Shown here in pieces: positions 3,880 to 55,449 of a stretch of DNA of 64,000 nt. The notes beneath the pieces were generated by a model, which worked only from the letters and a program-made list of their open reading frames with translations, made no database searches and had not been told where the DNA came from. The first letter of the stretch is position 1. Each line of letters begins with the position of its first letter. The position numbers were made by a program, and so were the translations under genes. The stretch lies in contig CAWEPT010000016.1 in NCBI GenBank assembly GCA_963810965.1, forward strand, positions 5,051 through 69,050, written 5' to 3'. Source of the DNA: an uncultured delta proteobacterium (GTDB taxonomy: Bacteria; Desulfobacterota; Syntrophia; Syntrophales; UBA2192).

Positions 3880-4204
3880 ATGGCCAAAGCGAAGAAGGGT
3901 GATCTGTTCACTTGTGAGCTGTGCGGTCTCGTCGTCGCTGTTGACGAGAGCTGCGACTGTGTCGTCGGTGAGCTGATCTGCTGTGACATCCCAATGGAGA
4001 AAGGAAAGGCAAAGATGAAGAAGGCTGCAAAGCCCGCGAAGAAAGCAGCGAAGAAACCGCAAAGTGAAAAAGGCGGCTGCCCAAGAAGAAGGCACACCGG
4101 CAAAAGCCAAGAAGGCCGCAAAGCCCAAGGCGAAGGCGAAGCCCAAGGCAAAGGCGAAGCCCAAGGCAAAGGCGAAGCCCAAGGCAAAGGCAAAGAAGAA
4201 ATAA
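3880..4204 (+). CDS. desulforedoxin-like Cys4 domain fused to a Lys/Ala/Pro-rich histone-H1/AlgP-like tail (one frame change near 4060)
   Basis: AAGGAGGAG RBS then ATG at 3880. KGDLFTCELCGLVVAVDESCDCVVGELICCDIPMEK matches the desulforedoxin pattern (CxxC ... CC). The tail KKAAKPAKKAAKKP continues after a +1 shift as KVKKAAAQEEGTPAKAKKAAKPKAKAKPKAKAKPKAKAKPKAKAKKK, ending at TAA 4202-4204. Confidence 0.6.
4121..4192 (+). repeat. four tandem 18-bp units (AAGCCCAAGGCRAAGGCR) encoding KPKAKA repeats
   Basis: Direct reading gives units at 4121-4138, 4139-4156, 4157-4174 and 4175-4192. They are in frame with the stop at 4202. Confidence 0.9.
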
Positions 4205-6049: not shown

Positions 6050-7197
6050 ATGGCGGTTCAACGGGAAAAGAAAGAAAGCCTCTCGCGACTGACGGTGCAG
6101 GCGATACGCTTTGCAGGCCGGGACCTTTCCGTGCGAGGCGATCTCGGGCGTCGGGACCCCCGGGGAGCTCTGGCGGACGATGGCCAGACGGGGCCTTCTG
6201 GGCTGGAGCATCCCTGCAGCGTTCGGGGGAGAAGGCGCAGGATTTTCCGACATCCTTCCGGCCGTGGAGGCCTTCGTCGCGAAAGGCGGCAGACCGGGGC
6301 TCGCCCTTTCCTGGATGGTCCATCTGATCGTCGGAAAGGTCCTCATCGCGGGCGTCGCAAACGGCAAGCAGAAAAAGGAGGTCCTGCCCGGGATGGCCTC
6401 CGGGAAAAGGACCGTCTCCATAGCTCTTTCCGAGCCGGGGGCCGGAAGCGACCCGAAGCGGATTCGCACGACGGCCGTGAAAAAGGGAAGATCCTATGTG
6501 CTCGATGGGGAAAAGGCGTGGCTCACCAATGGTCCCCTGGCCGATCTCTTCATTGTATTTGCCGTGACGGGAGAGCGGGGAGGGAGAAAGGGCTTTACGG
6601 CTTTTCTTGTCCCGAGGGAAACCCCCGGGCTCACCGTTCGTGAAATGCCGGCCCTGGGCTACCTGAGGCCGTCCCCGCACTGCGAGATCCGGCTCGAGGG
6701 GTGCGACCTGCCCGAAACCGCCATCCTGGGCCGAAAGGGGCCGGGCCTGGGAAGAGCTCTCGAAACCGTTCAGGGTGGCTGAGGATGTGCTGCTGTCAGG
6801 GGCCATCCTCGGGGGGCTGGACCGGGAGCTGAGGCAGGCGGCCCGCAGCCTGCGGGAGCGCAGAGGGGAGATCGAAAACGACGTGAAGGAGCGCGTCGGG
6901 GGAATCGCGGCCCTGCTGGAGACGGCGAGGCAGGTTGCGCGGGGCGCCGCAAGGGATCTCGACGGCGGGAAGCAGGGCACGGACGTGGAGCACGGGCTCG
7001 TTGCCTTTCACCTCATCGCGAAAACGCTGCAGGAATCCCTCGGGGGGATCCTCGAAGAGCAAGCAGGCGGCAGGCCCGCCGGTCCGGGTGCGCCGGGGGA
7101 CGATATCGCCCGGCTCATCGGACTCGGGATGCACGCATCACGGGCCCGTCAACGCAAATGGGGAGATACACTTCTGATCGGGAAGGAGAAGTCATGA
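6050..7197 (+). CDS. acyl-CoA dehydrogenase family protein (divergent), two frame changes
   Basis: Pieces 6038.., 6111..6782 and 6775..7197. GLLGWSIPAAFGGEG, SIALSEPGAGSDPKRIRTTAVKKGRSYVLDGEKAWLTNGPLADLFIVFA and GFTAFLVPRETPGLTV match the ACAD N-terminal and middle domains. Shifts lie near 6110 and 6775. Confidence 0.6.
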
Positions 7198-10487: not shown

Positions 10488-10522
10488 AAACCCTGAACTC
10501 GATACCCTGAACCCTGAATACG
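10488..10522. repeat. ACCCTGA-type heptamer array
   Basis: AAACCCTGAACTCGATACCCTGAACCCTGAATACG, immediately before the USP RBS. Confidence 0.8.
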
Positions 10523-12664: not shown

Positions 12665-12690
12665 GTTGCTGCGAGGCAGCAGCTCACAGG

Positions 12691-12762
12691 CCCGAGGCTC
12701 GAGGAACGAGGACCGAGGAAGATAAAAAGCCTCGAGCCCCGTGCCTCGACCCTCGGGCCTCG
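12691..12762. repeat. inverted pair of CGAGGNN / CCTCGNN heptamer arrays
   Basis: CCCGAGGCTCGAGGAACGAGGACCGAGGAAG, loop ATAAAAAG, CCTCGAGCCCCGTGCCTCGACCCTCGGGCCTCG. Preceded by a separate hairpin at 12661-12687. Confidence 0.85.
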
Positions 12763-12764
12763 AT

Positions 12765-12816: not shown

Positions 12817-12893
12817 ACCTGTCTGGTCTATCTGGTCTGTCTCGTCTATCTGTCAGTCTATTCCGTCTGTTCCGTCGTTTCGTTCCCGGATCC
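12817..12893. repeat. GTCTNNC-type period-7 array (purine-rich on the minus strand)
   Basis: CCTGTCTGGTCTATCTGGTCTGTCTCGTCTATCTGTCAGTCTATTCCGTCTGTTCCGTCGTTTCG. It lies just 3' of the minus-strand gene ending at 12916. Confidence 0.8.
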
Positions 12894-13700: not shown

Positions 13701-13731
13701 GGGTAGAGGGTAGCGGGTCGAGGGTAGAGGG
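13701..13731 (+). repeat. GGGTAGA heptamer array (five G3 tracts)
   Basis: GGGTAGAGGGTAGCGGGTCGAGGGTAGAGGG, in a divergent spacer. Confidence 0.85.
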
Positions 13732-13741
13732 AAAAACAGAT

Positions 13742-13824
13742 GGCCGACAGTCCGCAGCCGACAGCCAAAGACGAAAAGCCAACAATGAATCTTTACTGTA
13801 GGCTGTAGACTGTCGACTGTAGGC
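13742..13824. repeat. ~85-bp imperfect hairpin element (copy 2 of the 10373..10460 element)
   Basis: GGCCGACAGTCCGCAGCCGACAGCC, A-rich loop AAAGACGAAAAG..., CTGTAGGCTGTAGACTGTCGACTGTAGGC. Same orientation and roughly 80% similar by eye. Confidence 0.8.
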
Positions 13825-13879
13825 TTTAGATGGCATATGTTATAAAGGATTATGACGTTTGGGGAAAGGAGGGTTGAAG

Positions 13880-18473: not shown

Positions 18474-18543
18474 CACCCTCACCCCACCCTCTCCCCTCAA
18501 GGGAGAGGGAGAATCAAGGAATAGGGTTCTTCATAGGGAGAGG
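18474..18543. repeat. C-rich / G-rich inverted low-complexity arms
   Basis: CACCCTCACCCCACCCTCTCCCCTC AA GGGAGAGGGAGAATCAAGGAATAGGGTTCTTCATAGGGAGAGG. Confidence 0.7.
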
Positions 18544-23103: not shown

Positions 23104-23871
23104 ATGAAAATCATCCTTTTGGGCGCGCCCGGCGCGGGCAAGGGCACCGTGGCGAAACTGCTCACCGATTACGACGGATCCGTTCAGATCTCCACCGGGG
23201 ACATCCTGCGGGCCGCCGTCCGCGAAGGGACCGATCTCGGGAAAGAGGCCAAGGCCTACATGGACCGGGGCGACCTCGTGCCCGACGCGCTGATCATGAA
23301 GATCATGGAAGTCAGGCTCCAGGAGCCCGACTGCGCGAAGGGCTTCATCCTCGACGGCTTTCCCAGGACCATCGCCCAGGCCGACGCGTTGAAGGGGATC
23401 CTGAAGAAGCTCAATCTGAAGCTCGACATGGTGGTGAACCTGGAGGTGCCCCGCGAGGTGATCCTGGACCGCCTCACCACGCGCCGGACCTGCTCCAACC
23501 CATCCTGCCAGGAGATCTACAACGTGAAGAGCATGCCTCCGGCAGCCGACGGGACCTGCAAGAAGTGCGGAAGCAAGGTCGTCCAGCGCGACGACGAGAC
23601 GGAAACGGCCATTTTGTTCCGGCTCGAGACCTACAACCAGAAGACGGCCCCCCTCATCGGCTTCTACGAGAAAGAGGGGCTTCTGAAGAACTTCACGTCG
23701 CTCTCGAGCGCCGATACGGTCGAGGCGGTGAAGAAGGCTCTGAAAAAGGGTAGAGGGTCTCGGGTAGAGGGTATAGGGCGAAGAAAAGATCCCCCCGTGT
23801 ATGCCTGTCATCCAGACAGAAGGAGCGGGGGGATTTTTCATGGCGCATCGACCCGGGACGGAATAGAATGA
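23104..23871 (+). CDS. adk: adenylate kinase (real stop probably near 23750; the ORF reads through its own terminator)
   Basis: GAAGGAGGA RBS. MKIILLGAPGAGKGT. Zinc LID CSNPSCQEIY...CKKCGSKVVQRDDD. After ...VKKALKKG the frame crosses a GGGTAGA array and a hairpin. One extra A in the A5 run would give KKG then TAG. Confidence 0.85.
   Translation: MKIILLGAPGAGKGTVAKLLTDYDGSVQISTGDILRAAVREGTDLGKEAKAYMDRGDLVPDALIMKIMEVRLQEPDCAKGFILDGFPRTIAQADALKGILKKLNLKLDMVVNLEVPREVILDRLTTRRTCSNPSCQEIYNVKSMPPAADGTCKKCGSKVVQRDDETETAILFRLETYNQKTAPLIGFYEKEGLLKNFTSLSSADTVEAVKKALKKGRGSRVEGIGRRKDPPVYACHPDRRSGGIFHGASTRDGIE
23748..23783 (+). repeat. GGGTAGA heptamer array (five G3 tracts)
   Basis: GGGTAGAGGGTCTCGGGTAGAGGGTATAGGGCGAAG. 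Confidence 0.85.
23785..23838 (+). terminator. rho-independent terminator
   Basis: Stem GATCCCCCCG ... CGGGGGGATT followed by TTTT. Confidence 0.7.
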
Positions 23872-23893: not shown

Positions 23894-25858
23894 TTGCCGA
23901 TCGATTACGAAAGAGATCTGAACCCGGAGCAGTACCGCGTCGTCACAGCCGAAGGGGGTCCGATGCTCGTCATCGCCGGCGCAGGGAGCGGCAAGACGCG
24001 GACCCTCACCTACCGGGTGGCCCGGTTGATCGACACGGGAACACCGCCGGAGCGGATCCTTCTTGCGACCTTCACGAACAAGGCCGCCCGGGAAATGCTG
24101 GGACGCGTGGAGCTCCTTTCGGGAGTGGATGTGCGGAGGCTATGGGGCGGGACCTTTCACCACATTGCAAACCGGGTGCTGAGGCGACAGGGCTACCGGC
24201 TGGGCTACGGCAGGAACTACTCCATCATGGACACGGACGACACGAAGTCGCTCCTGAACGCCTGCATTGCCGATGCCGGGATCGACACGAAGGCCGGGCG
24301 GTTTCCCAAGGGGAATGTGCTGGGTGAGATCATCGGTTATTCCGTCAACACCGTGACCCCTCTCGAGGATGTCGTCGGGCTGAAATACCCGCATTTCAAT
24401 CATCTCATGGAGGACATCGTCGACATCGCCCGCAGCTATCGCGAGCGGAAGAAATCTCTCAACATGATGGATTTCGACGATATGCTGGCAAACTGGCTCG
24501 AACTTCTGCGAAACGAACCGGAGGCCCTCCGGGAATACGCGGAGCGTTTCCTGCACGTCCTGGTCGACGAGTACCAGGACACCAACAGCCTGCAGGCGGC
24601 GATTCTCGATCTTCTCAGCTCCCGGCACCGCAACCTCATGGTGGTGGGCGACGACCACCAGAGCATCTATTCCTTCCGGGGGGCCAATTTCGAAAACATC
24701 CTGCGATTCCCGGACCGCTACCCCGACGCGAAGGTCTTCAAGCTCGAGACGAACTACCGCAGCACCCCGCAGATCCTGGACCTGGCCAACCGGAGCATCG
24801 TCCGGAACCGCGACCAGTTCCAGAAGGAGTTGCGGGCCGTGCGCAAGGGCGGTTTCAAGCCCGTCTACGTCCCGGTGCGAAACGTCACCCTGCAGGCGGC
24901 CTTCGTTGCACGGCGGATCATGGATCTCATCATGGAGGGGATTCCCATCCGGGAGATCGCCGTTCTGTACCGTGCCCATTATCACTCCATGGAGCTCCAG
25001 ATGGAGCTGACACGGCGAGGCATTCCCTTCGAGATCCGCTCGGGCATCCGCTTCTTCGAGATGGCCCACGTGAAGGACATCACGTCCTACCTGAGGGTGC
25101 TCGTAAACCCCCTGGACGAGGCAGCCTGGAAAAGGGTGCTCGGGCTCTACGAGAAGGTGGGAAGAGTCACGGCGGACCGGGTCTGGAAGGCGCTGGCGGC
25201 CGAGAAAGACCCCCTGGCGGCATTCCGGGACCCCGCCTGGGTGAAGCGCGTCGGGAAGGCGGCGGCTCCCGGGCTTCTGAGGCTCGGCGAGACCCTTGCG
25301 CTTTTGTGCGATAAGATTGCCGAGCAGGCGCCTTCCGATCTCATCCACCTGCTTCTCAACCGCGGGTACCGTGAGGATCTGCAGGAGCGTTACACGGACA
25401 GCTTCTCCCGGGAAGAGGATCTGATCCAATTGGCCAATTTCTCGGGCCGCTTCGCGAGCCTGACGGACTTCCTTGCCGAACTTTCGCTGCTGACGAACAC
25501 GACGGAGAACGAGGATTCCGGCGCTGCCGAGGCGAAGGACCAGGTGATTCTCAGCTCCATCCACCAGGCCAAGGGCCTGGAGTGGACCGTTGTGTTCATC
25601 ATCTGGTGTGCCGAGGGGATGATCCCGCTGGCCCGCGCGCTCAACGAGGCCGGCGGCGAGGAAGAGGAGCGGCGGCTGTTTTACGTGGCCACCACCCGCG
25701 CCAAGGACCAGCTCTACCTCTGCCACCCCCTGATCGACTATTCCCGCGGGATGGGCATGGTGCCCCTGCGGCCTTCGCGGTTCATCGAAGAACTCGAGGA
25801 GGACGCCTTTCACCCGACGGAGCTGCCCTATGAGCAGTGGATCATTGATGAGGACTAG
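23894..25858 (+). CDS. UvrD/PcrA/Rep-family ATP-dependent DNA helicase
   Basis: TTG start in track. AGAGSGKTRTL (motif I), VDEYQDTN (motif II), VVGDDHQSIYSFRGA, LETNYRSTPQIL, VATTRAKDQLYL. Confidence 0.85.
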   Translation: MPIDYERDLNPEQYRVVTAEGGPMLVIAGAGSGKTRTLTYRVARLIDTGTPPERILLATFTNKAAREMLGRVELLSGVDVRRLWGGTFHHIANRVLRRQGYRLGYGRNYSIMDTDDTKSLLNACIADAGIDTKAGRFPKGNVLGEIIGYSVNTVTPLEDVVGLKYPHFNHLMEDIVDIARSYRERKKSLNMMDFDDMLANWLELLRNEPEALREYAERFLHVLVDEYQDTNSLQAAILDLLSSRHRNLMVVGDDHQSIYSFRGANFENILRFPDRYPDAKVFKLETNYRSTPQILDLANRSIVRNRDQFQKELRAVRKGGFKPVYVPVRNVTLQAAFVARRIMDLIMEGIPIREIAVLYRAHYHSMELQMELTRRGIPFEIRSGIRFFEMAHVKDITSYLRVLVNPLDEAAWKRVLGLYEKVGRVTADRVWKALAAEKDPLAAFRDPAWVKRVGKAAAPGLLRLGETLALLCDKIAEQAPSDLIHLLLNRGYREDLQERYTDSFSREEDLIQLANFSGRFASLTDFLAELSLLTNTTENEDSGAAEAKDQVILSSIHQAKGLEWTVVFIIWCAEGMIPLARALNEAGGEEEERRLFYVATTRAKDQLYLCHPLIDYSRGMGMVPLRPSRFIEELEEDAFHPTELPYEQWIIDED

Positions 25859-25912
25859 GGTACAGGGTACAGGGTACGAGGGTACAGGGTACGAGGGTAA
25901 GAGACGAAGAAC
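25858..25912 (+). repeat. GGGTACA heptamer array (six G3 tracts) starting in the helicase stop codon
   Basis: TAGGGTACAGGGTACAGGGTACGAGGGTACAGGGTACGAGGGTAAGAGACGAAG. Confidence 0.9.
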
Positions 25913-25927
25913 GACTCTTAAAGAATT

Positions 25928-25968
25928 AAAAAAGGATCGAGGATATGCATATCCCCGATCCTTTTTTT
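25928..25968. terminator. bidirectional rho-independent terminator
   Basis: A-run, stem GGATCGAGGATATGCATATCCCCGATCC, then TTTTTTT. Confidence 0.8.
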
Positions 25969-25970
25969 GT

Positions 25971-26005
25971 CTTGACCTGAACCCTAGACCCTGACCCTGA
26001 GCCCC
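25971..26005. repeat. ACCCTGA heptamer array (G-rich on the minus strand)
   Basis: TTGACCTGAACCCTAGACCCTGACCCTGAGCCCC, directly 3' of the minus-strand OMP gene. Confidence 0.85.
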
Positions 26006-26012
26006 TTCTTTC

Positions 26013-26883
26013 TCAGAAGGCGAAGCTCACGTTGATCCCGCCATAGAAGAAGTTATATTCATTGAGATTCTTGCTGCGGCCCTTCATTTCGTTCTTTGCA
26101 TCATCGGAAAGGGGGAACACCCAGGACACCGTCGGGGCAATCGTGACATACTTCCAAGGCGTGATGGGGAGCGTCGCCGAGATCACGCCGTCGTGGAAAT
26201 TGCTGAACTTGTCCGTCGTCGGCAGAGCGTTGTCGTCATATTTCGGATAGGTCGATGCATCGTCGCTCAGGAGGTAGCTTAACGAGCCGGCGAGCTTCAG
26301 GCCGATCATCTTGGTGAGCTCGAAGGTGTGGGACACCCCGAAGAGGAAATACGTCTGGTGGTAATGATCGATCTCCTTGTAGATCGTGAGCGTCGGGGTC
26401 AGCAGGACGTTTCCGGCCAGCGAAACGAAGAGCTCCTGGGAATCAAGCGGGTCGGCTGCTCCCGCGTTCGGGGCATTCAGCGCATAGTAGATGTAACCCA
26501 GGCCCGCCGTCACAGGACCGAAGGCCCTGCTGTAGGAGAGGGTCAGGTCCGTCTCTGTCCAGGTGCTGGAGTAGGATGCATCCGTCGTCGAGTAGGGGTT
26601 GGTATCCAGGTTGCCCCAGAGGTTGGCGGTGAATCCCTTGTACCCGACCGTCGCGGAGGGCTGGATCACCATGCTGTCTCTCGTCTGCTGCTGGCCGCGC
26701 CAGATGTAGGCGCTGAGCGCCGATACGGTGAAGTCGGCCGTGGGCTTTTCCTCCACCGCGAGCCGGAGCGGCGGGTTTGGCCTCCTGGGCCATTGCTTCG
26801 GTGAGCAGGCTGACGCCGATGCCCAGAACGATGGCGGATGCGATAACAAGTCTCAGAATCCGATCCAATAAAGCCTTCGTCAT
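26013..26883 (-). CDS. outer-membrane beta-barrel protein (TorF/Gcw_chp-like putative porin), one frame change near 26775
   Basis: Signal peptide MTKALLDRILRLVIASAIVLGIGVSLLTEAMA (ORF 26443..26901). Alternating beta pattern and terminal ...GGINVSFAF. Confidence 0.6.
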
Positions 26884-33306: not shown

Positions 33307-33348
33307 CCCTGAAACCCTGTACCCTAGACCCTGGACCCGATACCCTGC
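33307..33348. repeat. ACCCTGN heptamer array (six G3 tracts on the minus strand)
   Basis: CCCTGAAACCCTGTACCCTAGACCCTGGACCCGATACCCTGC, in the divergent comEC/kinase spacer. Confidence 0.85.
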
Positions 33349-53054: not shown

Positions 53055-53921
53055 ATGCAGAACCTGAGAATCATCATCGTCACCGGCATGTCCGGCTCCG
53101 GCAAGAGCACGGCCCTTCGGGCGCTGGAGGACGTGGGGTTTTTCTGCGTCGACAACCTGCCCGTCGTCCTGCTGCCGAAACTTCTCGAGATCCAGACCGA
53201 CGCCGCCAGCGAGATCAGCAAGGTAGCCCTCGTCATGGATTTGCGGGAGCGGTACTTCCTGGAGAAGTATGCGGAGATCTTCGCCAAACTCAAGGAAGAG
53301 GGGCACCGGATCGAGATCCTCTTTCTGGACGCCAGCGACGAGTCGCTGCTGAGGAGGTTCCGCGAGACGAGGCGGGCACACCCGCTCTGCGAGCGGGGGA
53401 CCGTGATGGAGGGGATTGCGCTGGAGCGGGAGAAACTCTCGGCCCTGCGGGCGATGGCGGACAAGATCGTCGACACCTCCTCGTTCAACGTCCACCAGCT
53501 CAAGGAGGTCATCCAGCGCCACTTCATGACGTCGACCACCGAGAAGCGCCTCCTGATCAACCTGATGTCGTTCGGCTTCCGCTACGGGCTTCCTGCCGAG
53601 GCGGACATCGTGCTGGACGTCAGGTTCCTGCCCAACCCCTACTTCATCGAGGAGCTGAAGCACCTCAACGGGGAGAACGAGAAAATTCAGGAGTACGTCA
53701 TGGGGTGGGAGGAGAGTCAGACCTTCCTTCGGAAGATGCTGGACATGATGGAATTCCTGATCCCGCTTTACGAGAAGGAAGGCAAATCAAACCTCAACGT
53801 GGCCCTGGGCTGTACGGGCGGCAAGCACCGCTCCGTCGTCATGGCCACCCGCCTGGCCCGGTACTTTGCCGGTGAGAATTATCTGGTGAACGTGGCGCAT
53901 CGCGATATCCACAGGGCATAG
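53055..53921 (+). CDS. rapZ: RNase adapter protein RapZ
   Basis: [39 protein letters not shown]. Confidence 0.9.
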
Positions 53922-55449
53922 GGACAGGGTCGAGGGTAGAGGGTAAGAGGGATGAATAAGAAAGAAAAAGGATCAGGAAGACTTCCCGATCCTTTCTTTT
54001 TCTTACCTGTCCTTGATCCTGTCCCTGGTCCCTATCACCCTGGACCCTGAACCCTTGACCCTTGACCCTTTTCTTCCCTTCGCCTTGGCCTTCGCCGGTT
54101 GCGCCTTCGGGGTCGCGGGAGGCGGTCTGCGGGGCCGTCTCGGTCAGCTTGCCCGTCACGTTGTCCTGGATCCAGTGGGCGTCCCACCACTCCGTGGGGT
54201 TCACGAACTCCCCGCCGACGAGGATGCTGAAGTGCAGGTGGTCGCCACCGGCAAGCCCCGTGGCGCCGCTCGCGCCCAGGGTCTCTCCCCGAGCCACACT
54301 CTGTCCGACTTTCACGCCGATATCCGACAGGTGTGCGTAAAGGCTGGAGAGCCCCAGGCCATGATCCACAATGACGGTGTTGCCGTAGATCCCCAGGTAT
54401 CCGGTAAAAACCACCACGCCGTTGTTTGCCGATTCGATGGGGGCTCGCTCCGTCGAGGCGAGATCGACACCATAGTGCGTGCTCTTGCTCACGGCCATCC
54501 CCTCGAAGAAATAGGTTCTCGCCTGGGCGAAGCCGGCCATGGGCGCCGCGTTCTTCATGCGCAGGAAGGTTCCCTCCCAGAGCGCCTTGGGCTGGGACTT
54601 GCTGCCGGCTGCCTGGATCGTCTTGGTGTTCTCGCCGCGCAGCGTCTCGTTGACGAACAGGAAGGCTTCCAGAGGCGTGGCCGGGACCCGGGGATCATGC
54701 TGCCTGAACTCCGGCATTTTCTGTTCCAGGAAGGCGCGGCTGAGGGTGATCTTGTCCTCCTTGAATTTCTTTTCTCTCACAAGATGAGGAAGAGCCACGG
54801 ACGATTCGTTTCCGGCCTTGTCCCGCGCGGTAATCAGGATCTTGAGCCCCCCTTGGGACGCCGAGGCCGGGATGGCGAAATAGACAATATGGCAGGGTTT
54901 GCCCTGGATCGCGTAGGGGTAACCGTGGAAAAAGCGATCCCCCACCCGGATGCCGGTACGGGTCACTTCTTCCGAAACCCGGTAAAGGGCAACACCGGTC
55001 CCCCCGGCGTTGACGTTGTGGGCGGAACTGATCATGCCGATCTGCGGCGGCACCGTGTCGATGGACGTCTCCACCGAGAGCGTTGTCCGGTTTTTCAGCC
55101 AGGAATGATCCTCGGCCGTGATGGTGATCGTCGCCGGGCCGTCCTTGAGATTCAGCCCGCGCGGGTTCAATTCGGGACTCAGCGTTTGTTCCTTTGTCCC
55201 CCCGGCGTAGTTTTCGGACAGAACAACCTGATCCCTGCCTTCCTGGCTGATCGTGACGGAGACGTTCCGGATCCCGCTCTTCTGATCGGAGACGGTCAGG
55301 GCGATGGCTTTCCCCGGGCCGATCGTGGAGAGGTCATCCTTCAGGACGATGGCGGGTTTTTCGAACTCCAGGATCGTGTTGAAGGCCCAGAGGGCGGACC
55401 CCGCAAGGGCGATTGCGAGGCCGAAGAGCAGCAGGTACATTCGGTTCAT
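53839..55449 (-). CDS. M23 family metallopeptidase (the 3' ~250 nt of the ORF is probably not coding)
   Basis: [33 protein letters not shown]...[20 protein letters not shown]...[12 protein letters not shown]. The ORF has no in-frame stop until 53839 and crosses the heptamer arrays, the terminator and the rapZ 3' end. Confidence 0.8.
53920..54070. repeat. G-rich heptamer array, central terminator hairpin, C-rich heptamer array between convergent genes
   Basis: TAGGGACAGGGTCGAGGGTAGAGGGTAAGAGGGATG... hairpin AAAGGATCAGGAAGACTTCCCGATCCTTT ...CCTGTCCCTGGTCCCTATCACCCTGGACCCTGAACCCTTGACCCTTGACCC. Confidence 0.9.

Follow-up and report, generated by a model that had tools for sequence, protein, structure and literature searches.

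The window analysed here, a 64,000-nucleotide stretch (C16:5051-69050) of the genome of an uncultured member of the order Syntrophales, carries tandem arrays of G-rich heptanucleotide units in its spacers, and seven of these arrays contain canonical G-quadruplex (G4) motifs. Examination of the whole genome indicated that about half of the period-7 arrays are built on different cores. The canonical G4 motif is thus one variant, the GGG type, within a wider heptamer system, whose members lie directly behind stop codons with the G-rich strand as the sense strand. We consider that these lineage-specific arrays arise by slippage and may persist as structure modules in transcribed 3' untranslated regions (3'UTRs) and intercistronic spacers, with a role like that of the repetitive extragenic palindromic (REP) elements. 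We give this reading, whose RNA-level part is inferred, about an even chance.

The genome is a metagenome-assembled genome (MAG) of 1.50 Mb in 34 contigs (61% GC, 68% complete), and orthologues of its helicase group it with MAGs of Syntrophaceae/Syntrophales. Potential quadruplex sequences (PQSs), defined as at least four tracts of G3 or longer on one strand with loops of N1-7, were located by regular expression and scored with G4Hunter, and intergenic and coding DNA were scored apart against dinucleotide shuffles. Over the whole MAG, 150 intergenic PQSs were observed against 28.4 ± 4.5 in the shuffles, so that the scoring against shuffled spacers proposed in the original prediction gave an enrichment far above chance. 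Coding PQSs were depleted (115 observed vs 171 ± 14 in shuffles). The density was 0.50 per kb in intergenic and 0.095 per kb in coding DNA, and the motifs were found on nearly all contigs. About half of the 280 PQSs genome-wide were built from GGGT heptamers; 101 of these were intergenic and 26 overlapped gene 3' ends in the sense orientation. Tandem arrays were detected with Tandem Repeats Finder (TRF), and 98 of 158 intergenic PQSs lay in TRF arrays with a period of 7, 14, or 21. The original prediction was to be refuted by motifs that were no more frequent or strand-biased than the heptamer arrays alone would produce. This was largely the case, and the remaining 60 intergenic PQSs outside the arrays still amounted to about twice the shuffle expectation (~28).

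TRF reported 308 period-7 arrays genome-wide, 292 of them intergenic or at gene ends. A G3/C3 core was present in 153, and the other 155 had different cores, including CAGGTGA, CAGGTAA, CGAGGNN, CACTGGT, and GGCTAAA. The GGG-type arrays had a mode of 5 copies and a median length of 31 nt, compared with 4 copies and 27 nt for the others, and the median distance from the stop codon to the array was 2 nt and 4 nt, respectively. When the arrays were classed by gene end and skew (3'G being the 3' end with G-skew in the sense strand, and 3'C, 5'C, and 5'G being named likewise), GGG-type and other arrays numbered 84 and 51 for 3'G, 23 and 27 for 3'C, 21 and 21 for 5'C, and 13 and 9 for 5'G. Because arrays without G3 tracts have the same anatomy, the position and strand bias belongs to the heptamer arrays and not to G4 capacity. 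The interpretation in terms of G4 is thus supported in part, but G4 capacity is not supported as the defining property of these elements, since half of the arrays (155/308) lack G3 tracts and are equal in size, stop anchoring, and strand bias.

The GGG-type unit can be written as A-GGG-T-N-N, that is, GGG-T-[A/C/T]-N-A, with a period of 7 in 82% of unit steps. Loop position 1 was T in 83% and position 4 was A in 89% of the units, with positions 2-3 variable; the T after and the A before the tract were conserved even when the search did not require them. Adjacent units were identical in 14% of cases (8% expected), and perfect repeats were found in only 4 of 54 arrays. The arrays typically comprised 3-5 units (about 21-35 nt), with a maximum of ~9. 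Among the 143 stop-proximal G arrays, 52 had three tracts, 36 four, 49 five, 4 six, and 2 seven.

The arrays are tightly anchored to stop codons. In about 89 of these 143 cases, the G array begins -1 to +20 nt from the stop of a co-oriented gene, and the start phase peaks at -1 (TAG|GG) and +6 (mod-7 chi-square p = 2e-5). The median distance from stop to array was 2-6 nt, with the G-rich strand being the sense strand, and no comparable coupling to start codons was seen. Convergent spacers were ~2.5-fold enriched in arrays. Furthermore, a stop-proximal G array followed 10.6% of TAG-terminated genes and 5.0% of TGA-terminated genes (p = 0.002), and TAG itself was part of an array unit in 17 cases. 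A co-directional spacer typically has the layout of stop codon, G-type array, short linker or terminator, C-type array, and promoter or start codon. Provision of stops in all three frames was rejected as a general function, since most units (GGGTACA, GGGTTCA, GGGTCCA, and GGGTCAA) contain no stop, although TAG is often included in the first unit. Shine-Dalgarno (SD) mimicry seemed unpromising, as AGGGU, by inspection, pairs over just 3-4 nt with the anti-SD sequence. A strict link to intrinsic terminators was also dismissed, as few arrays precede one and many sit between co-directional genes.

A further regularity was observed when a G-skewed and a C-skewed array lay within 150 nt of each other. 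Over all families, the G-skewed array came first in 46 cases and the opposite order was found in 0; definitions restricted to GGG arrays gave 24:0 and 40:3. About one third of the arrays were in such inverted pairs, which often bracket a bidirectional terminator. The arms matched by family in most pairs (17 GGG/GGG, 24 other/other, and 5 mixed), and the duplex energy over all families was -33.0 kcal/mol for the real arms vs -22.6 ± 1.2 kcal/mol for permuted arms. As the paired arms are family-matched, they would extend hairpins. Indeed, two paired loci of the window were predicted to fold as long imperfect hairpins enclosing the terminator (-74 and -71 kcal/mol, with z of -7.4 and -5.0). A pair without G4 capacity, in which (CGAGGNN)n is followed by its complement (NNCCTCG)n at 12688-12763 (+), directly after a stop codon and before a terminator, also folded as a hairpin; the z-scores of the window hairpins were -5 to -8 overall.

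RNA folding was calculated with ViennaRNA including G-quadruplex energies. An RNA G4 (rG4) was part of the minimum free energy (MFE) structure of three terminated 3'UTRs, namely those of rapZ (-30.7 vs -20.5), adk (-40.6 vs -35.7), and the putative outer-membrane protein (OMP) gene described below (-40.8 vs -37.9), and of two solitary arrays. No rG4 was obtained in the ViennaRNA fold of the helicase and M23 peptidase 3'UTRs. When the C arm was included, an rG4 never appeared in the MFE structure, the arm-arm hairpin (-74 to -76 kcal/mol) outcompeting the G4. On these calculations, G4 folding is plausible for terminated or solitary GGG arrays.

All seven G4 sites listed for the window in the original prediction were confirmed as tandem GGGTNNA heptamers with 4-7 G3 tracts, loops of 4-5 nt, and G4Hunter scores of 1.0-1.5, and TRF gave a period of 7 at each. 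The accompanying statement that there were at least seven such motifs, all in spacers, needs narrowing. The window holds 13 canonical PQSs, and the six further ones, at 6569, 6728, 32601, and 63117 on the plus strand and 11426 and 18476 on the minus strand, are all non-periodic. Five of them lie within called genes, and that at 18476 falls where no gene was called. The restriction to spacers is therefore valid just for the heptamer-built motifs. The neighbouring genes were identified with Pfam as encoding a UvrD-like helicase, RapZ, an M23 peptidase, Adk, ComEC, and a PilS-like kinase, whereas the putative OMP gene gave only a weak match to Gcw_chp.

At the convergent helicase/OMP and rapZ/M23 pairs, the G-rich strand is the sense strand and the array lies ahead of the terminator, as had been predicted; it lies right after the stop codon. 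The helicase array at 25858-25899 (+), composed of GGGTACA-type units (GGGTACGA), has six G3 tracts in the 3'UTR of the UvrD-like helicase gene; its PQS core at 25858-25897 (+) also has six tracts and a G4Hunter score of 1.27, and the TAG stop at 25856-25858 supplies the first G of the array. The array is followed at 25928-25967 by a bidirectional hairpin resembling an intrinsic terminator, consisting of an A-tract, GGATCGRGGATAT...ATATCCYCGATCC, and a T-tract, the core of which is conserved in congeners. On the other side of this hairpin, the OMP array at 25975-26005 (-), C-rich on the plus strand, has four G3 tracts (G4Hunter 1.35) and lies in the 3'UTR of the convergent putative OMP gene at 26013-26756 (-). 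The rapZ array at 53920-53951 (+) has five tracts of the type GGGWNNA (G4Hunter 1.44) and begins at the TAG stop at 53919-53921, in the 3'UTR. A bidirectional terminator-like hairpin at 53965-53997 separates it from the M23 array at 54020-54070 (-), which is C-rich on the plus strand and has seven tracts (G4Hunter 1.02) at the 3' end of the M23 peptidase gene.

The adk array of GGGTAGA-type units at 23748-23783 (+) has five tracts, with a PQS core at 23748-23778 (G4Hunter 1.28), and is followed by an intrinsic terminator hairpin with a T-run at 23788-23838 (+). The orthologous adk stop, TAG at 23751-23753, falls within the first unit of the array. At 23743-23753, the adk frame of the window has A5, and the congeners have A6 (TTG AAA AAA GGG TAA/TAG). 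With A5 instead of A6, this TAG is out of frame and the adk open reading frame (ORF) reads through the array and the terminator to 23871, owing to either an assembly indel in the homopolymer or a genuine frameshift. Similarly, the M23 peptidase ORF is open in frame through the heptamer array and the terminator hairpin (53839-54100, minus strand); the neighbouring frame ends at a TAA shortly before the terminator, and in congener G011 both frames stop at or within the array. Since the longest adk and M23 ORFs cross their arrays, the term intergenic rests there on comparison with orthologues.

The two remaining sites are in spacers as predicted, but these spacers are divergent, so that the arrays are not at gene 3' ends. 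The solitary GGGTAGA array at 13701-13731 (+) has five tracts (G4Hunter 1.52), and an (ACTGTAG)n array lies downstream of it at 13795-13830. The solitary array at 33307-33348 (-), with six tracts (G4Hunter 1.10), is in the spacer between comEC and the PilS-like kinase gene, 34 nt upstream of the likely comEC start.

Several other repeats were observed in the window and elsewhere in the genome. Between the end of a C-rich (ACCCTGN)n array and the called start that follows it lie 3-20 nt, without a recognisable SD sequence, at 10489-10518 of the window and at C25:7417-7447, C17:5824-5854, C20:21380-21412, and C27:107312-107350 of the genome; either these starts are miscalled or the genes initiate without an SD sequence. 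At C5:17693-17760 and C5:51825-51890, C-rich arrays are directly followed by sigma-54-like promoter motifs (TGGCA-N-TTGC). A second repeat class with units of 8-9 nt (GGAAYAGAC / GTCTNNC) fills spacers beside heptamer arrays, at 12819-12876 of the window and at C17:47590-47650, C17:130780-130850, and C20:13540-13600. An 18-nt tandem repeat, AAGCCCAAGGCAAAGGCG, at 4118-4195 of the window (4.2 copies, 96% identity) is probably a coding Lys/Ala-rich repeat. No Rfam 15 family matched at the gathering score within the 64-kb window.

The distribution of the arrays among relatives was determined by scanning 61 genomes of the order for the patterns GGG-N4 ×4, AGG-N4 ×4, and GGGTNNA. In 18 congeners, GGG-N4 ×4 gave 13-532 matches per genome, with low numbers in G006, G007, G009, and G017. 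The sister genus had 22-66 matches, and more than 20 other families of the order had mostly 0-10. AGG-N4 ×4 gave 33-793 matches in all congeners, with few matches to the reversed pattern and sporadic occurrence elsewhere (G047 and G038), and GGGTNNA gave 0-199 per genome. At the 3' ends of the helicase, OMP, adk, rapZ, and M23 genes, compared in 12-15 congeners, the position of the array was conserved, and the unit and copy number varied. The helicase 3'UTR kept a PQS in 11 of 14 congeners, with units GGGTACA, GGGTGTA, GGGTATA, GGGGACA, and GGGTATC; the OMP arm was replaced by (GGTCACT)n in four genomes. In the rapZ 3'UTR a PQS was kept in 10 of 15, as GGGTNNA or GGGACNA variants, and at the adk 3' end in 3 of 12, where the arrays were (GGGTAAA)9, (GGCTAAA)4, (AGGACAA)3, or (AGGCGAA)n. 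These retention rates indicate that the G tracts tend to persist at some loci and can be dispensed with at others. In three close relatives (L001, L002, and L004), the adk 3' region upstream of the helicase gene differs from that of the window, with CACCCTCACCCTGRCCCTCTCCCC and a GGGAGAGG hairpin element replacing the end of adk; this suggests that an insertion or rearrangement took place there.

In 2015, Rehm et al. (PLoS One, PMC4692102) described heptamer repeats, GGGAATC in Xanthomonas and GGGGAYT in Nostoc, at ~185 loci, 89-93% of them intergenic. Those repeats lie nearest to the ORF on their 5' side (28 nt on average), being at most 50 bp from the stop on the coding strand or, in the case of the non-coding strand, upstream of ORFs, and form 70-75 convergent inverted pairs, with four units preferred (PMC4692102). 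They vary between Xcc and Xac at conserved positions and form K+-dependent G4s in vitro; evidence of transcription was presented, and no function was identified (PMC4692102). The arrays in this study resemble them as tandem heptamers with a G3-4 tract, conserved flanks, variable loop positions, and heterogeneous units, spread genome-wide over ~150-200 loci, roughly 90% intergenic. They also share the frequent convergent inverted pairs, the under-representation between divergent genes, the position kept among close species with variable length and sequence, and the lack of a link to gene function or mobile elements. In contrast, the present unit is GGGTNNA, the hosts belong to an anaerobic genus of the Syntrophales, G4 folding is predicted, the modal size is five tracts instead of four units, and the maximum is ~9 instead of 26 units. 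As to the preference for four units, four tracts were counted here in 36 arrays and five in 49, and the non-G3 heptamers also have a mode of 4. As the anatomy is the same, we regard the present arrays as a new lineage and unit of this known repeat class. We did not find in PMC4692102 the non-G3 families that exist in parallel, the matching of arms by family, or a G-then-C order that is absolute in all families.

Other heptamer repeats are less similar. The cyanobacterial short tandemly repeated repetitive (STRR) heptamers, and the heptameric simple sequence repeats over-represented in several bacterial groups according to a 2007 survey, are cited in PMC4692102. As far as the available accounts of them go, they likewise comprise several tandem units in the intergenic DNA of one lineage, with heptamers favoured over other sizes, but their units are unrelated, and stop anchoring and G-then-C order were not found described in those accounts. 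The 2007 survey is reportedly that of Mrazek et al. In Geobacter metallireducens, a (former) deltaproteobacterium, elements of about four tandem G-rich heptamers in many copies (GGACCGG ×4 at 49 loci, and also MTYCTGA ×5) carry the annotation of putative regulatory RNA or protein-binding sites (PMC2700814); unlike the present arrays, they also occur within genes, are each matched as a single conserved element by BLAST, and lack a G3 tract. The TAACTGA direct repeats of Beggiatoaceae and cyanobacteria (2-6 copies, ~170 loci), a proposed post-transcriptional protein-binding site, are also intergenic heptamers, but consist of a single A/T-rich unit just 5' of starts, without G tracts or inverted pairs (PMC4679880). 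A likeness in possible working was seen in the REP elements and bacterial interspersed mosaic elements (BIMEs) of enterobacteria, which occur in hundreds of copies in 3'UTRs and intercistronic spacers, often near stops. REP elements and BIMEs are imperfect palindromes without a U-tract and stabilise the upstream mRNA. Unlike the arrays, REP elements are one conserved palindromic unit of ~35 bp spread by REP-associated tyrosine transposases (RAYTs); here we found many families, arms of tandem heptamers, and two thirds of the arrays solitary, instead of one ~35-bp imperfect palindrome.

According to the reading that we favour, the arrays would arise and turn over through slippage of 7-nt units and would be kept as transcribed 3'UTR or intercistronic structure modules, like REP elements and BIMEs in role. 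Paired arms would form long, register-tolerant, imperfect stems, in which core helices of 4-5 bp alternate with small internal loops, and these stems may lengthen terminator hairpins or take their place, shield adjacent transcription units from one another, and stop decay in the 3'-to-5' direction. With the G arm strictly first, C-rich, Rho-loading RNA would stay unexposed until its partner is transcribed; the genus does possess Rho. Where a GGG-type array is solitary and its transcript is terminated, the array may fold as rG4 and serve the same 3'-end role, and G4 would not be needed for the heptamer system as a whole. A number of findings weigh against this reading. About two thirds of the arrays are solitary, and cryptic complementary partners were looked for and none was found, so that a hairpin role cannot cover these arrays; for the solitary non-GGG arrays, no structure is predicted. 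In pairs of the GGG family, no covariation is seen between the variable loop positions of the two arms (-29.6 kcal/mol for real vs -29.3 ± 0.8 kcal/mol for permuted arms), which means that the complementarity is at the level of the core and register-tolerant, and base-by-base covariation was rejected. In L001, L002, L004, and L006, the arms in the helicase/OMP spacer are from different families. Family-matched arms could also come from templated (quasipalindrome) mutation without selection. Moreover, ~20 of 92 arrays (about 22%) are followed by an intrinsic terminator vs 15% of all genes in a crude strict scan, and the gene calls were made with a home-made dicodon model of 80% coverage on a 68%-complete MAG.

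A rather unlikely alternative is that the arrays have no function and are by-products of a mutational bias peculiar to the lineage, in which slippage or templated repair favours 7-nt units that escape mismatch repair, the products being tolerated only outside coding sequence and G4 capacity being incidental. The coexistence of many unrelated unit families, the rapid turnover of unit and copy number at fixed sites among congeners, and the patchy abundance between genomes, with sporadic occurrence in other families (G047 and G038), agree with this explanation, as do the arrays in divergent spacers and the fact that Rehm et al. assigned no function (PMC4692102). It accounts poorly for heterogeneous units in which five of seven positions are nevertheless conserved, for the pair order of 46:0 with family-matched arms, for the tight sense-strand stop anchoring with its phase preference (p = 2e-5), and for the sharp upper size limit near five units, although selection that merely filters harmful orientations could yield some of these biases. 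It is likewise unlikely that G4 formation itself, in the 3'UTR RNA or the non-template DNA, is the selected function of the GGG-type arrays and modulates termination, 3'-end stability, or polymerase progress. G3 tracts were indeed kept at the helicase (11/14) and rapZ (10/15) 3'UTRs while loops and flanks changed (including GGGACGA), five tracts in 31 nt are the commonest size, the four-tract motif of period 7 has undergone a 10-100-fold expansion across the genus, rG4 appears in the MFE structure of terminated transcripts, and analogous heptamers fold into K+-dependent G4s in vitro (PMC4692102). Yet non-G3 arrays are equal in size, stop anchoring, and strand bias, 52 of the 143 stop-proximal G arrays have three tracts only, and the adk PQS was kept in just 3 of 12 congeners, where GGC, GGA, or GGT arrays persist. 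In addition, four congeners poor in GGG arrays are rich in AGG-N4 arrays, the conserved T and A flanks are unnecessary for G4, and the arm-arm hairpin outcompetes G4 once both arms are transcribed. RNA G4 regions are also said to be depleted in bacteria (Guo and Bartel, 2016), which we count against a G4 function.

The conserved 5-nt core, which recurs strictly every 7 nt and leaves two positions free, would also suit a platform for an RNA- or single-stranded-DNA-binding protein with a 7-nt footprint and an AGG/AGGG core, such as a cold-shock-domain (CSD) protein, whose cooperative coating of the 3'UTR would tune termination or decay. We regard this as very improbable. The AGG core is common across families and all congeners, with the reversed pattern rare, the arrays are limited to ~4-5 units, and CSD genes are numerous in the genus, with 1-9 per genome, five in this 1.5-Mb MAG, and nine in G001. 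The binding site of a CSD spans about 7 nt, and CspC of E. coli reportedly selected AGGGAGGGA in systematic evolution of ligands by exponential enrichment (SELEX). Against this, no candidate protein was identified or found to covary with the arrays, the presence of CSD proteins discriminates nothing since they are universal, and some families lack AGG (AGTTTTG and GTGGCTA). Models based on HutP-like sites (UAG-N4) or on a CsrA sponge were rejected, as HutP was found in 0 of 26 genomes searched and CsrA was absent from 15 of the 16 genus genomes searched, being present in one. It is also quite doubtful that heptad arrays within the ribosome footprint of the stop constitute a dedicated RNA-level system, read as rG4 or by a protein with a 7-nt footprint, that defines and protects mRNA 3' ends and, at more than 100 genes, couples the termination of translation to the fate of the transcript. 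If true, such a stop-proximal system would be a natural counter-example to the avoidance of RNA G4 in bacteria, with the non-G3 heptamers as a parallel, protein-read variant.

The anatomy of the arrays, their enrichment, their strand and pairing rules, their phylogenetic restriction, and their turnover are direct observations in this study. They have a practical consequence for annotation, as stop codons are embedded in arrays and several ORFs cross them, and the arrays are likely places of assembly indels in MAGs. The heptamer arrays of this genus are a solid and well-replicated case of a repeat class that is known but still lacks an explanation, and the non-G4 heptamers among them serve as an internal control. 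For comparisons, the genus is cleaner than Xanthomonas or Nostoc, because G4-capable and G4-incapable families with identical anatomy exist side by side; the range from ~15 to ~530 G4-type arrays among congeners and the paired arms in absolute G-then-C order also aid the comparison. Through these internal contrasts, the roles of G4 folding, of hairpin formation, and of having arrays at all could become separable questions.

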